Shown piece after piece: positions 5,845 to 9,901 of a stretch of DNA of 25,129 bases. Source of the DNA: Candidatus Altiarchaeota archaeon (lineage in GTDB: Archaea; Altiarchaeota; Altiarchaeia; IMC4; SCGC-AAA252-I15); the NCBI GenBank assembly GCA_018815265.1, contig JAHIYG010000277.1, positions 1-25,129 of the forward strand, given 5' to 3'. Every line of letters begins with the position of its first letter. Within the stretch, counting starts at the first letter, position 1. A program made the translations under genes and the position numbers. Below the pieces are notes generated by a model. That model worked only from the letters and a program-made list of their open reading frames with translations. It did no database searches and was not told the DNA's origin.

Positions 5845-7266
5845 GTGAAAAAAAAGAGAGTCCGGCATTTGATAATACTGGCGCTGGTCCTCATTTTATC
5901 ATTTCACATATCGCAATTGTATAGTTCACTTAGCACTAACGACTTTATCTTCGGTCCTCCAGTTAGCATTTTCCTGAAAGACACCTACCCCATTTATCAA
6001 TTTAATAAAGACGACATAAAACACATGGATGAACTATACTGGATGCAGAAGACATACATCTACTATCTCTTTAAAGAACGCAATTTTTCATTAGATGCGT
6101 GGGATCACCCATACATCTACGATCAACCCCCGTTGGGCAGGTACATACTGGGTTTTGGTTTGGAACTGTTGGGGGGGGAAGTAGCGACTACTGAAGGAGG
6201 TCTTATGCTGTGGGAAAAGTCGTGTATGAGGCGACTTTGGGTTAACATCAACGAGAGAGATTATGATTCTTATGGGACTGATATCCGCGGTCTTTTGGAA
6301 TATGAGGATTACCTTAGAAAAGGAATCCGCAATTCTAAGATTTCACCTTTGGATTTGAATTACTTATTAAAGGCAAGGGAGATAGTATTTTTCTTTGGCT
6401 TACTAACAACTTTGTTGGTAATGCTGTTGTGTTATATTCTCTCCAGGGATACTATTGCATCCTTGGTTTCTGGGCTGCTTTTTTTGGACAACGATATATC
6501 AAAACTCGCTTTTACTGCAGTATTGACTGAAACCATATGTGCTTTCTTCATGCTGGCAATTCTTTTCACTGTTTTTTTCTATTTCAGACATAAGAGGCAA
6601 TTACGCGAAATTATTCCGCCCCTGCTCATTGGAATATCTATTGGATTTGGTATAAGTGTAAAATTCACTGTTTTCCACATGTTGGTGACGACTTTGCTTG
6701 TCTTCGGCATATATCTCTTCATAACCTTGAATAAGGGGACAGATACTCACAATAAACATCATAATAAGAAAATATTCATGACATTCATCTGTCACGTGTT
6801 TCTGATTTTTTCAACATCTATTGCAGTGTTCATACTACTTAATCCATTTCTCTACTCTGACCCCCTAGGGAATACAATGGCTATGATTGACCATAGGGTT
6901 AAGTACATGGAATTACAATGGCTGCACCAGCAGGTCCCGATTGATTCAACTTGGGATGGATTTTTGAATATGTACCGGCGCGGAATCCTAAGAGATGACA
7001 CATCTGGCCCGTTCAAAAATATCGGCACGCTTGACCTACTATACACTTTCTGTGTGCTAGTTGGTTTAAAAGAATTGCTTGTAGGCTCTCGCATTGAAAT
7101 AAAGCAAGGGTCTGTGGGGAAGGCAACAATCGCTTTTGTATGGGCGCTGTCGACGTTTCTAGTCTTTACCGTGGGCGTTCATATGGATTGGACGAGATAC
7201 TACCTATCAGTAATTATGGTTTCAGCAACCCTATTCGGCATTGGATTACACAAACTAATCCACTAA
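5845..7266 (+). CDS. GT-C fold glycosyltransferase (PMT/ArnT-like, GT39/GT83-type) membrane protein
   Basis: DHPYIYDQPPLGRYILG, AREIVFFFGLLT, LTETICAFF, GISIGFGISVKFT, WTRYYL; polytopic; GTG start. Confidence 0.75.
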   Translation: MKKKRVRHLIILALVLILSFHISQLYSSLSTNDFIFGPPVSIFLKDTYPIYQFNKDDIKHMDELYWMQKTYIYYLFKERNFSLDAWDHPYIYDQPPLGRYILGFGLELLGGEVATTEGGLMLWEKSCMRRLWVNINERDYDSYGTDIRGLLEYEDYLRKGIRNSKISPLDLNYLLKAREIVFFFGLLTTLLVMLLCYILSRDTIASLVSGLLFLDNDISKLAFTAVLTETICAFFMLAILFTVFFYFRHKRQLREIIPPLLIGISIGFGISVKFTVFHMLVTTLLVFGIYLFITLNKGTDTHNKHHNKKIFMTFICHVFLIFSTSIAVFILLNPFLYSDPLGNTMAMIDHRVKYMELQWLHQQVPIDSTWDGFLNMYRRGILRDDTSGPFKNIGTLDLLYTFCVLVGLKELLVGSRIEIKQGSVGKATIAFVWALSTFLVFTVGVHMDWTRYYLSVIMVSATLFGIGLHKLIH

Positions 7267-7293
7267 TGCTTTACATCCCACAATGATACACAT

Positions 7294-7348
7294 GGGCCCG
7301 CTGGGACTTCGCAAGACATTCGTCTTGCTTGCCCCAGTGGGTGCTAGT
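7294..7348. repeat. Structured repeat unit 2 of tRNA-anchored mini-array
   Basis: gggcccgctgggac-ttc-gcaagac attc gtcttgc-ttg-ccccag-tgggtgctagt; first 13 nt identical to the reverse complement of the tRNA-Arg 3' end. Confidence 0.8.
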
Positions 7349-7377
7349 AAGGAAGAGGTTAATAGATTGTAATGAAC

Positions 7378-7434
7378 GGGCCCGCTGGGACGTGCAAAAT
7401 CCATTAAGGATTTTGTGTCCCAGGGGGTACTGGT
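7378..7434. repeat. Structured repeat unit 1 of tRNA-anchored mini-array
   Basis: gggcccgctgggac-gt-gcaaaatcc attaa ggattttgt-g-tcccag-ggggtactggt; shares a 14-nt left edge with unit 2 and 13 of 16 nt at the right edge. Confidence 0.8.
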
Positions 7435-7463
7435 GACACCTTCTTGTTACAGTTGGTGTTAGG

Positions 7464-7679
7464 TGGGCCCGCTGGGATTTGAACCCAGGATCTACAGCTT
7501 GCTTCGAACCTCTGTGGCGCAGGCGGTAGTGTATTATGCCGCCGTATGGTGGCATTATTTATTTCGCCCGTGAACCGCAACGAAGACATTAGTCTTCGCA
7601 TGCACAAATGGTTTTTCCTTTGTCGTGGCGTGATGGTTCGTAGAAGGCTGTCGCCATATCCAGGCTTGGCTACGAGCCC
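7464..7679 (-). tRNA. tRNA-Arg (anticodon UCU) with intron at canonical position 37/38; exon 1 7679-7641, exon 2 7499-7464
   Basis: Spliced: GGGCTCG TA GCCA AGCCTGGATA TGGC G ACAGC CT TCT AA GCTGT AGATC CTGGG TTCAAAT CCCAG CGGGCCC A. All four stems pair. CCA not fully encoded (reads ACCT). Confidence 0.95.
7500..7640 (-). other. 141-nt archaeal BHB tRNA intron
   Basis: Perfect BHB: ACAGC-CTTC-TA^C-GAACC ... GGTTC-GAAG-CA^A-GCTGT (4-bp central helix CTTC/GAAG, two 3-nt bulges, outer helix GAACC/GGTTC). Confidence 0.92.
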
Positions 7680-7751
7680 AATATCTGAGTATATGAATAG
7701 GTTCAATAGGAATAAAAAAGTGATTTTATCATTGTTTACCTATTTATTAAC

Positions 7752-8552
7752 ATGGTTTTGGAGGCGCAAGTAAAGACTTACCCCTTAGCTGTGGATTTAA
7801 GGACATACATGACTTTGAGGGGATACAATGCATTTATTTTTCCTCTTTTTGCATTCATATTCCTCCCGCTGGGGTGGTTGCTGGGGTCTCTAGTCATGAG
7901 TGTTTTAGGGATGTTATTCCTTCTATTCACTCCATTTGCGCTAGTTTTTTTGGCTCTTGATTACGAATTATATCCAAGACAAATAAGTATTGATGGAGGG
8001 TATCTGAACATACCTGATTTCAGTGGTTTCCCTCTGTCCCTCATAGGGTTTTCAGGGGAGGGATACATCTTTGACTTCAAAAAAGAGCAGGTTTATATCA
8101 GGGTAAGGTTGTCAAACATACGGGAGGCGTATGTCGTCAAAGACCCTCATGAGAAGCCAAAACCTCTCAGGCAATTTGCTAGAGTAAGGGTGAAAACGAC
8201 ATATTCGCTAGCTCTTCCAACATTTAAGGGATATACTGTCTACACAAACAAGTACGACCAAACGCGATATATGCCGCCACTCACGAAGATTTCAGAAGAT
8301 AGATACATTTTTGAACCGGAGATACACAATCAACTAAAGGAAAAAATCAGAAATCATCTACATCGGCAATACGCCCACGACCAGGATTGTGTTGTCGCCG
8401 TAATGGTGAAAAATCTGGTGTTTACAGTGCCTGAAAATATAAGGAACAGGTACCCTAAACCGATAGAGTATCCTGTGTTCTCAAATGAGACAATCTATTT
8501 TTCAGTTAAAGATCCAGAGAAATTCATAGCAGATCTAAAATATGTCATTTAA
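7752..8552 (+). CDS. Hypothetical membrane protein (N-terminal hydrophobic hairpin, soluble C-terminal domain)
   Basis: 266-aa ORF filling the gap between tRNA and glyA; two hydrophobic helices near the N-terminus; C-terminal YFSVKDPEKFIADLK is reminiscent of PH-like domain tails (weak). Confidence 0.7.
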   Translation: MVLEAQVKTYPLAVDLRTYMTLRGYNAFIFPLFAFIFLPLGWLLGSLVMSVLGMLFLLFTPFALVFLALDYELYPRQISIDGGYLNIPDFSGFPLSLIGFSGEGYIFDFKKEQVYIRVRLSNIREAYVVKDPHEKPKPLRQFARVRVKTTYSLALPTFKGYTVYTNKYDQTRYMPPLTKISEDRYIFEPEIHNQLKEKIRNHLHRQYAHDQDCVVAVMVKNLVFTVPENIRNRYPKPIEYPVFSNETIYFSVKDPEKFIADLKYVI

Positions 8553-8653
8553 CTGAATAACCCAGCACCTCTTTGGTAGAGAACAGGAAATTCATACAGC
8601 GGCTATTTATTTATTGTTATCTTCATATTGTATCGATTGGGTGTTTTTTTAAA

Positions 8654-9901
8654 GTGGATGATTTGTTTTATGCCTCTTTGAAGGATGTTGATAGGGATGT
8701 TTTTGATGCTGTCTCCTCCGAGGAGGTGAGGCAGGAGGGCATAAATCTCATAGCATCTGAGAGCCTCACGTCGAAGGCTGTTAGGGAGGCTTGTGCGTCT
8801 GTCATGACTAACAAGTATGCTGAAGGCTATCCTAGGAAAAGATACTATGGGGGATGCGAGAATGTTGATGTCGTCGAGGAGTTGGCTATTGAGCGTGCCA
8901 AGAAGATTTTTGGGGCAGAACACGTTAATGTCCAGCCGCACAGCGGAACCCAGGCGAACCTCGCCGTGTATTTGGCGGTGTTGCAGCCAGGAGACAAAAT
9001 ACTTTCCATGGAGTTGTCCCATGGGGGCCACCTCTCTCATGGCTACAAAATAAATGAGAGCGGGAAAATCTACAGGGGCGAATTCTACACAGTCAACAAG
9101 GAATCTGGCATGTTGGATTACAACGAGGTGTTGGCGCGCGCAAAGGAAGTTAAACCCAAAATTATTGTATGTGGATACAGTGCATATCCGAGGACTGTAC
9201 CATTTAAGGAGTTTGGGGAGATTGCAGAAGAAGTCGGTGCGTACTTGATGGCTGACATCGCACATATTGCGGGCTTAATCGGCGCTAATGTTCATCCCTC
9301 GCCGGTGGCATACGCGGACTTCATCACAACCACGACACATAAGACATTGATGGGTCCGAGGGGCGCGATGATAATGTGTAAGGAGGAGTATGCAAAGGAT
9401 ATAGATAGGGCAGTATTTCCTGGAACACAAGGCGGCCCATTCATGAATGTAATAGCAGCCAAGGCGGTTTGTTTCAAGGAAAACCTCACTCAGAAGCGCA
9501 GAAATATGAATGCACAGATTGTGAAAAACGCCAAATCACTTGCAAACAAATTAACCACCATAGGATTCAATCTAGTGTCTGGAGGAACTGACAACCACCT
9601 GATGCTGGCTGATTTGACAAACAAGAACCTCACAGGCAAAGACGCTGAAGCAGCTCTTCAGGCTGCAGGGATAACATTGAACAAAAATACGGTTCCATAT
9701 GACAAACAAAGCCCATTCGTAACGTCGGGTGTCAGGATTGGGACGCCATGCGTCACAGTAAGGGGGATGAATGAAGGCGATATGGACAAAATTGCAACCT
9801 GGATTTCAGACGTCATAGAAAATCCCTCAGATGAAAATATGCGTTCTAAGATAAAATCCGAGGTTGCAGAACTTTGCGCTAAGTACCCAGTATACAAATG
9901 A
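8654..9901 (+). CDS. glyA: Serine hydroxymethyltransferase (bacterial/folate type)
   Basis: [59 protein letters not shown] (PLP lysine), [23 protein letters not shown] 8654 chosen because the track's longer N-terminus is non-homologous. Confidence 0.97.

Follow-up and report, generated by a model that had tools for sequence, protein, structure and literature searches.

What has placed two further copies of the 3' end of a transfer RNA (tRNA) gene behind an intact tRNA gene in an archaeal genome? The question is raised by the tRNA-Arg(TCT) locus in a 25,129-nt stretch of Candidatus Altiarchaeota DNA (contig JAHIYG010000277.1; hereafter the window), where the gene is followed by two units that each contain a hairpin and a copy of the tRNA end. 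A sequence-only reading of the window had proposed either a repeat-spacer array processed into small RNAs or serial insertion by a tiny tRNA-targeting element. We examined the locus in the genome that holds it (G000, an assembly of 1.58 Mb in 317 contigs), in the five genomes of its genus (G000 to G004, 71-92% complete) and in further relatives. The units are probably two independent, gene-less mini-cassettes from a family of DNA-level insertions that lodges at tRNA 3' ends in this archaeal family. This conclusion builds on the architecture of the units, their recurrence at many tRNAs, the homology of their non-tRNA parts, their turnover between species, their decay and the absence of an RNA-strand bias, all of which were observed here.

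Two units that repeat the end of tRNA-Arg(TCT)

The tRNA-Arg(TCT) gene was placed by hand reading at 7464-7679 on the minus strand, with exon 1 at 7641-7679, an intron at 7500-7640 and exon 2 at 7464-7499. Its last segment (7464-7477, minus strand), referred to below as the core, comprises T60, the 3' strand of the T stem, the 3' strand of the acceptor stem and the discriminator A73. This target segment is re-copied in each unit, so that both units end by repeating tRNA positions 60-72/73 exactly. On the plus strand the 13-mer GGGCCCGCTGGGA occurs without mismatches at 7294, 7378 and 7465, with periods of 84 and 87 nt, just as the sequence-only reading had reported. Only 0.26 matches with up to two mismatches are expected by chance, and the observed count was reached in none of 100 shuffles. 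The same reading had correctly delimited spacers of 30 nt (7435-7464) and 29 nt (7349-7377), and had found the right edges of the two units identical at 13 of 16 positions, which they are.

Unit 1, the proximal mini-cassette, spans 87 nt (7377-7463, minus strand). Nearest to the tRNA is its 'spacer' (7428-7463, minus strand), a conserved part of the element in which a box CTAACAC lies upstream of a box GTGTCAC, 23 nt apart. An inverted arm follows (7418-7427, minus strand), which, but for one C.C mismatch, complements tRNA positions 60-69. The inner hairpin (7395-7415, no strand assigned) pairs CAAAATCC with GGATTTTG around the loop ATTAA, as read on the plus strand, and belongs to an 'ACACAA' subfamily. 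The unit closes with a direct copy of the core (7377-7390, minus strand) that is identical at 13 of 13 positions and carries a G in place of the discriminator. Covariance model R1, which describes units of this type, scores unit 1 at 38.5 bits (E = 5.7e-9).

The distal mini-cassette, unit 2, spans 84 nt (7293-7376, minus strand), has the same order and reaches 43 bits with R1 (E = 1.7e-10). Its spacer (7342-7376, minus strand), TCATTAC..TAAC, contains degenerate boxes 21 nt apart; its inverted arm (7333-7341, minus strand) complements tRNA positions 61-69, with one A.C on the tRNA strand that is G.T on the plus strand; its inner hairpin (7311-7328, no strand assigned) consists of GCAAGAC and GTCTTGC with the loop ATTC on the plus strand and represents an 'AAGCAAG' subfamily; and its direct core copy (7293-7306, minus strand) is identical at 14 of 14 positions, the discriminator A included. 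Neither window unit has an open reading frame. Both fold into composite hairpins (-30 to -35 kcal/mol for the units), in which the outer stem is formed by 7381-7390 with 7418-7427 in unit 1 and by 7297-7305 with 7333-7341 in unit 2.

The sequence-only reading had described the two hairpins as covarying and the spacers as unrelated. As a description the covariation stands, and it is explained by an outer stem built from each tRNA's own end together with inner hairpins of two different subfamilies. The inner hairpin of unit 1 groups with the GACACAA..TTGTG set of G001 and G002, whereas that of unit 2 belongs to an 'AAGCAAG..CTTGCG' group shared with the Arg-gcg unit of G000 and the Arg-tct unit of G004, with the near-variants AAGCGAG and AAGCAAC in G003, G005 and G016. 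The spacers, by contrast, are not unrelated but are diverged copies of a conserved part of the element; the start of the unit 2 spacer, TCATTACAATCTATTAAC, for example, resembles the spacer of the G000 Arg-gcg unit on contig C313, TCATTACCCTCTGGTAAC.

The tRNA gene itself is intact. Its intron of 141 nt lies at position 37/38 and has a perfect, textbook bulge-helix-bulge (BHB) motif (ACAGC / CTTC / TAC / GAACC ... GGTTC / GAAG / CAA / GCTGT); CCA is not encoded. With default settings ARAGORN lists no tRNA anywhere in the window, and with introns allowed it finds the gene and miscalls it as Gly-tcc, while every orthologue in relatives, whether without an intron or interrupted differently, is called Arg-tct. 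These orthologues have no intron in G001, G002 and G004, and introns of 79, 105 and 201 nt in G016, G006 and G017, respectively. BHB introns are found in 11 of the 20 tRNAs of G000, an archaeon. Nothing points to misassembly, since a Logan contig of 418 nt, assembled independently from the source sample, covers 7278-7695 with 0 mismatches.

A family of units at the tRNA genes of the genus

The sequence-only reading had envisaged that other tRNAs might be followed by units of their own 3' ends, and this proved to be widespread. Each tRNA called by ARAGORN was compared with its own last 12 nt, allowing at most one mismatch within 450 nt and using the upstream side as a control. Downstream copies were present at 6 of 20 tRNAs in G000, 12 of 30 in G001, 13 of 26 in G002, 5 of 18 in G003 and 6 of 21 in G004; the upstream side gave one copy each in G001 and G002 and none in the other three genomes. 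For the genus, 42 of 115 tRNA genes (about one third) have a downstream copy versus 2 of 115 with an upstream one, and by our own estimate the chance expectation for a downstream copy is about 0.006 per tRNA. Additional copies, diverged or truncated by contig ends, were recognized by eye in G000 on C7, C85, C47 and C184. As a negative control, 72 tRNA ends with an identical T arm and acceptor strand in metagenome contigs of other organisms were inspected, and none had a downstream core copy; a metagenome scan with exon 1 of the tRNA-Arg gene returned no match.

Copies of 3' ends also occur in other genera and families of the order, among sampled tRNAs: 4 of 6 in G005, 2 of 4 in G006, 3 of 7 in G016, 1 of 7 in G014 and 1 of 10 in G010, and, among further relatives, 5 of 7 in G030, 4 of 6 in G023, 2 of 9 in G024, 1 of 7 in G029 and 0 of 6 in G026. 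These mostly belong to longer cassette classes. The relative G010 has over 120 tRNA matches, of which many are packed head to tail at intervals of about 80 nt (contigs C4, C38 and C59); a contaminant or an element made of tRNA arrays could account for them.

The window units belong to a class that we call type B, whose anatomy was deduced by aligning units found at more than 15 different tRNAs in five species. Model R1, the kind of covariance model that the sequence-only reading had called for, recovers type B copies in all five genus genomes (17 in G001, 17 in G002, 4 in G003, 3 in G004 and 2 in G000), and those in G000 are the two window units only. Across the order its matches are confined to a single family (f1), with none in 28 genomes of other families. 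Type B units cluster tightly in size at about 75-95 nt and keep a constant internal order at dozens of loci: a left part directly after the discriminator, an inverted arm, an inner hairpin and a direct copy of positions 58/60-73. The left part, or 'spacer', shows homology from one tRNA locus or species to another; its consensus is TnnTATC..GTnTCACGAAC, and it has two GTATCAC-like boxes at a modal spacing of 21-22 nt; the summed box score is 286, versus 229 +/- 5 in shuffles.

The arm is an inverted copy of tRNA positions 60-69, and the inner hairpin of 6-9 bp varies in sequence by subfamily; in the G001/G002 subfamily it reads AAAAAGCC-GAA-GGCTTTTT, with oligo-T on both strands. Across 31 units 87.7% of the outer stem is paired, versus 71.9% in shuffles, and double-changed cells number 57 versus 15. 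Of the 12 positions made informative by a G.U pair in the tRNA, 10 show an arm that complements the 3' strand exactly and departs from the tRNA's own 5' strand; the window arm is a case in point, reading CCC where tRNA-Arg has CTC. Because the arm follows the complement of the 3' strand, it is an inverted DNA copy of the gene end rather than a copy of the tRNA 5' half.

The units turn over, in that one tRNA carries from 0 to 4 of them, differing in class, across sister species. At tRNA-Val(tac)-NUDIX, a syntenic locus, there is a single unit of a two-hairpin type (type A, below) in G000, and in G001 there are four type B units, which fill the whole gap so that the ATG of the downstream gene lies 7 nt past the last of them. 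Identical tandem units occur twice over (2+2) at Val-tac in G001 and as one pair at Val-tac in G004. Decay is visible at Gly-gcc in G001, where the direct copy of a unit is mutated and the arm is intact. In G000 two tRNA-Pro genes share a near-identical module of 53 nt, with which C85 ends and C47 begins, and the assembly is broken there. Contigs of G000 break inside tRNA-linked cassettes at the end of C85 and at the starts of C47, C184 and C313; such repeats probably contribute to the fragmentation of this genome and to its low tRNA count.

Cassettes with genes exist alongside the mini-units. Behind tRNA-Gln in G002 (C30:606-4100; L027, L264) lies a small island of cassettes of about 1.5 kb, whose products are a VapBC pair, a membrane protein of 447 aa and a PIN protein. 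Each of these cassettes ends in a tRNA-Gln core copy, core copies bound them, and type B mini-units are interleaved with them; the first cassette has T-arm-like terminal inverted repeats (AGGTTCGAACCCTACCC / GGGTAGGAATCAAACCT). By their shared cores and interleaving, mini-units and gene-carrying cassettes belong to the same system. Elsewhere in G002 (L020), low-complexity GTCTTCGGTC / GACTGTGG repeats lie between two core copies, 90-260 nt downstream of tRNA-Gly(gcc), as a different sort of filler.

Type A units differ in layout: a direct copy of tRNA positions from about 48 to 59 leads into a conserved 58-nt insert of two hairpins (CGC-hairpin-GCG CAC-CAAAAC..GTTTTG-AGTG), placed exactly at T-loop position 59/60, after which positions 60-73 follow. 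Examples are found at Gly-gcc and Gln in G000, at Val-tac (two identical copies) and Arg-tcg in G004, at Asp in G001 (three copies) and at Arg-tct in G006. Hairpins flanked by CGC/GCG number 25 in G000 versus 4 in a shuffled genome, and most adjoin tRNAs. We considered whether the T-loop inserts could be BHB introns; judged by eye, they have a short closing helix (CGC/GYG) at the T stem and lack the two 3-nt bulges, and this candidate was rejected. One two-hairpin module (CGCGGAGCAGAC..GTCTGCTAGCG TACCAAAACAGCG..GCTGTTTTGTGTA) lies after a protein gene at C152:13431-13500 of G000 with no tRNA detected nearby, so the module is not strictly bound to tRNAs.

Mirror-image stubs occur at the other end of tRNA genes. 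The 5' end of the tRNA, from exactly +1 as far as the D loop, is repeated upstream of the gene at 29 of the 115 tRNAs of the genus, and downstream at 1. Upstream of tRNA-Asn in G000 (C188:4320-4640) there are two such stubs in tandem (positions 1-21, a D-loop insert of the same two-hairpin type, then 21 to about 43), and further 5' stubs with an intact gene downstream are present in this genome on C7, C96, C177, C261, C284 and C301. A conserved motif, ATGCAC-hairpin-GGAAGA with an A-rich stretch, lies about 20-50 nt before +1 of many tRNAs of G000-G003, where it ends the upstream cassettes (in G000, for instance, on C96, C177, C188, C284 and C301), possibly as a promoter that came with the cassette.

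As for the setting of the window locus, the array is bounded on its other side by a convergent gene for a GT-C/PMT-type glycosyltransferase (5845-7266, plus strand), whose stop codon is 26 nt from the end of unit 2; an exact-protein look-up of its product found no record. No synteny of the flanking genes was detected within 1.5 kb of tRNA-Arg(TCT) in relatives. Elsewhere in the window, a gene for serine hydroxymethyltransferase (8573-9901) may be of bacterial type, its best tblastn relatives in species genomes (54-61% identity) being mostly bacteria with some Methanosarcinales/Methanothrix.

How the units may have arisen

In tRNA genes, integrative elements use attachment (att) sites in the T stem-loop and at the 3' end, and integration regenerates the tRNA (PMC8371274; Williams 2002 summarised there). 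The mini-cassettes that we consider probable would behave comparably. A cassette of about 85 nt combines two GTATCAC-like boxes, set roughly two turns of the helix apart, with a composite palindrome and a direct copy of positions 60-73. Its insertion would leave an intact tRNA, because the insert comes to be flanked on either side by the segment from T loop to discriminator. Further insertions at one tRNA would then account for the 87/84-nt 'array'. Each unit could be a circularly permuted, cargo-less attP-like site with arm-type boxes and a core, used by a site-specific recombinase acting in trans, with the crossover somewhere between the T loop and the 3' end of the tRNA. Mobilisation in trans is favoured by the unit itself, since when read as a circle it has two direct boxes and a core, that is, a complete attP without cargo. 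The recombinase may be carried by viruses or plasmids that were not binned with these genomes, or may be of an unrecognised type. Serial insertion by a tiny tRNA-targeting element, the second proposal of the sequence-only reading, is supported by the recurrence of one architecture at many tRNAs, the shared non-tRNA parts, the differences between species, the decay and arrays of up to four units.

Several observations weigh against this account. A tyrosine recombinase (PF00589) was not detected in G000, G001 (92% complete), G003 or G004; within the genus only G002 has one, and among relatives 25 of 41 do. Cas1 (PF01867) was found in none of the five genomes, nor were a Y1-HUH transposase, TnpB or a reverse transcriptase (RVT_1) detected in them; small GIY-YIG nucleases likewise went undetected in all five, the sole GIY-YIG match being a protein of the size of UvrC. 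Because these enzymes went undetected, routes by way of casposons, IS200/605, TnpB, retroelements and small GIY-YIG homing nucleases were dropped. No autonomous parent with matching ends was found, and no viral contig has both boxes and hairpin: the inner-hairpin pattern had no match in viral contigs, and the two-box pattern had 92, an estimated chance level, with no R1 hairpin at any of the 80 loci fetched. A clean pair of empty and filled sites with alignable flanks is also missing, because the intergenic flanks of the species are too diverged. The locus was found in one sample only, that of the source study, and in no RNA run; the contigs of that sample are without variants. The structure poses difficulties of its own: a hairpin replaces the 7-nt T-loop overlap that a classical attR would keep intact, a double-stranded circle of 85 bp is a difficult substrate for recombination, and the repeat is specific to each tRNA, so that the family would have to adapt to any new one.

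The account has also to be measured against others. Direct repeats from T loop to 3' end are the classical attL/attR signature (PMC8371274), and two full-size integrative elements deleted down to their att ends, or one such scar duplicated by slippage or unequal crossing-over, would leave repeats of this kind. Cassettes with genes and the same bounding repeats in G002 fit this explanation, and the identical tandem units at Val-tac in G001 and G004 show that local duplication occurs. However, independent random deletions would not yield the tight size and constant order seen at dozens of loci, and the two window units differ in both hairpin subfamily and spacer, which means that neither arose recently by duplication of the other; we regard plain scars as unlikely. 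A function in RNA seems slightly less probable still. The units would then be mimics of minihelices in the 3' trailer of the tRNA transcript, either cut by tRNA-processing enzymes into small RNAs or serving as signals for processing or stability. They do lie directly after the gene on the tRNA strand as stable hairpins (-30 to -35 kcal/mol), their outer stem imitates the stack of acceptor and T arm, and their presence at about a third of the tRNAs of the genus could reflect selection. Yet over 44 units the folding energies of the two strands differ by -1.4 +/- 4.8 kcal/mol and G-U pairs number 74 versus 93, with no preference for the tRNA strand, and for both window units it is the opposite strand that gives the better fold. 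The arm exactly complements the 3' strand, though an RNA would tolerate G.U; the units turn over and decay instead of being kept at orthologous tRNAs; their conserved boxes, spaced by about 21 nt, look like DNA-binding sites; and the 5' stubs upstream cannot be 3' trailers. As judged from these features, processed RNAs from the units are unlikely.

Transcription termination is less probable again. The hairpins might serve the glycosyltransferase and the tRNA gene as shared terminators: the array takes up the space between these convergent genes, oligo-T occurs on both strands in the inner hairpins of the G001/G002 subfamily, and unit 1 has a run of four T on both strands. Unit 2 is without a T run, though, and a scan by bacterial criteria found no terminator-like site in 7293-7463. 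Direct and inverted copies of tRNA ends, boxes and 5' stubs would also go unexplained, which makes it improbable that terminators are the origin of the units, although units may have been co-opted as such. The repeat-spacer layout with spacers of near-constant length is, finally, what an acquisition array similar to CRISPR (clustered regularly interspaced short palindromic repeats) would look like if the repeat were duplicated with each uptake of 29-30 nt of foreign DNA. Here the spacers are homologous across loci and species and carry two conserved boxes, and they are therefore not acquired sequences; the tRNA shares just 13-14 nt with the 'repeat', and Cas1 was detected in none of the five genomes. 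We give such an array next to no credence. The array processed into small RNAs, which the sequence-only reading had proposed as its first alternative, is not supported either, in view of the same homology of the spacers and undetected Cas1, the absence of a strand preference and the arm that is a DNA complement.

Beyond the DNA-level mini-cassettes favoured here, a wider idea can be entertained, although we hold it only tentatively and think it more doubtful than not. The tRNA genes of this lineage might be anchors of an undescribed cassette system in which hairpin elements enter three loops of the tRNA gene, the folded palindrome made from the gene's own end is the recombination site, the enzyme is of an unrecognised kind, and the system is a source of archaeal tRNA introns. 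Entries into the anticodon loop would persist as BHB introns, and entries into the T loop or D loop would persist by virtue of a re-copied gene end, giving 3' stubs downstream and 5' stubs upstream. The units of about 85 nt would be the minimal, cargo-less cassettes, with a recombination site comparable to integron attC or the attP of CTXphi. The intron of tRNA-Arg(TCT) contains a hairpin at 7581-7598 (no strand assigned; CGAAGAC ATTA GTCTTCG) that shares 13 of 14 positions with the hairpin of unit 2; the 1.58-Mb assembly contains no AAGAC-ATTN-GTCTT hairpin besides this pair. The window conforms in this to a wider pattern, for modules of the cassettes are met again within tRNA introns: a BLAST comparison of introns with tRNA flanks gave 20 matches versus 2 with reversed introns, some of the matches involving doubtful ARAGORN gene calls.

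Relation to known systems and significance

Among described systems, the units come closest in several respects to integrative elements of tRNA genes and to their non-autonomous derivatives, the cis-mobilizable elements (CIMEs) of streptococci, which reportedly accrete in tandem (PMC5704250). They share with these the direct repeat from T loop to 3' end, the regenerated tRNA, tandem accretion and derivatives without a recombinase gene: the segment 7464-7477 is repeated at 7377-7390 and 7293-7306 next to an intact tRNA. They differ in their size of about 85 nt without cargo, in the occupation of about one third of tRNA genes, and in the T-loop position of the downstream copy, where there is a hairpin that adjoins an inverted copy of the tRNA end. 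An integrase, which such elements have in the element or the genome, is neither in the units nor detectable in four of the five genomes.

The hairpin invites comparison with integrons, by analogy only. Their attC sites are hairpins kept in structure and varied in sequence, their cassettes form arrays at one anchor and may lack cargo, and the attP of CTXphi is likewise a folded single strand. Our units similarly keep a composite hairpin with different stems (31 units), a likeness that is not proof of homology, and their order of core, rest, inverted core, loop and core is what might be expected if a folded hairpin site were integrated, as in integrons or CTXphi. Unlike integrons, the system of the units has no IntI/Xer-type enzyme (tyrosine recombinases went undetected in four of the five genomes), attI or Pc promoter; our alignment A2 contains no GTTRRRY-type boxes and lacks the R'/R'' consensus, and the repeat is 13-17 nt of tRNA rather than a box of 6-7 nt.

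Other systems match in fewer features. Downstream of tyrT in Escherichia coli, tandem repeats of 178 bp each hold the 3' end of tRNA-Tyr, which is the same tandem arrangement of units ending in a 3'-end copy; those repeats are longer and confined to a single locus, have neither inverted copy nor composite hairpin, and form no genome-wide family with shared non-tRNA sequence. Casposons, which depend on Cas1, produce target duplications of 14-15 bp, often at tRNA 3' ends, and so resemble the units in target and in duplication length; the five genomes in which Cas1 went undetected, the lack of terminal inverted repeats and a repeat that varies between 13 and 18 nt set the units apart. Repetitive extragenic palindromic (REP) sequences and REPINs are short hairpin repeats mobilised by RAYT transposases. 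The units, too, are short, abundant, non-coding intergenic hairpins without a strand-specific RNA signature, but no Y1-HUH enzyme was detected, and their arms copy the neighbouring tRNA end instead of a fixed palindrome. Nor do they have the makeup of miniature inverted-repeat transposable elements, as their ends are asymmetric (nTAGTATC on the left, ..AGAAT or ..CACG on the right) and their repeat measures 13-18 nt. An Rfam search of 6800-8200 (E <= 10) gave matches at chance level only, none of them over the units, and a full-text search of the published literature found no description of cargo-less cassettes of about 85 nt that re-copy archaeal tRNA ends.

If the units are what we propose, a large share of the tRNA genes of these widespread, uncultured archaea would be flanked by tiny, self-contained recombination-site cassettes and would serve as general landing pads in genomes almost without known mobile-element enzymes. 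This would explain assembly breaks at tRNA genes. Annotators of such genomes should be aware of tRNA stubs and of intron-bearing tRNAs that default tools miss. The conserved GTATCAC boxes would offer a handle for finding the recombinase. An origin of archaeal tRNA introns through attP-like sequences has long been debated (Sugahara 2012, cited in PMC8371274). The cassettes would tie together 3' stubs, 5' stubs and the hairpin modules shared with introns, and would provide a testable route by which archaeal tRNA introns may have originated.

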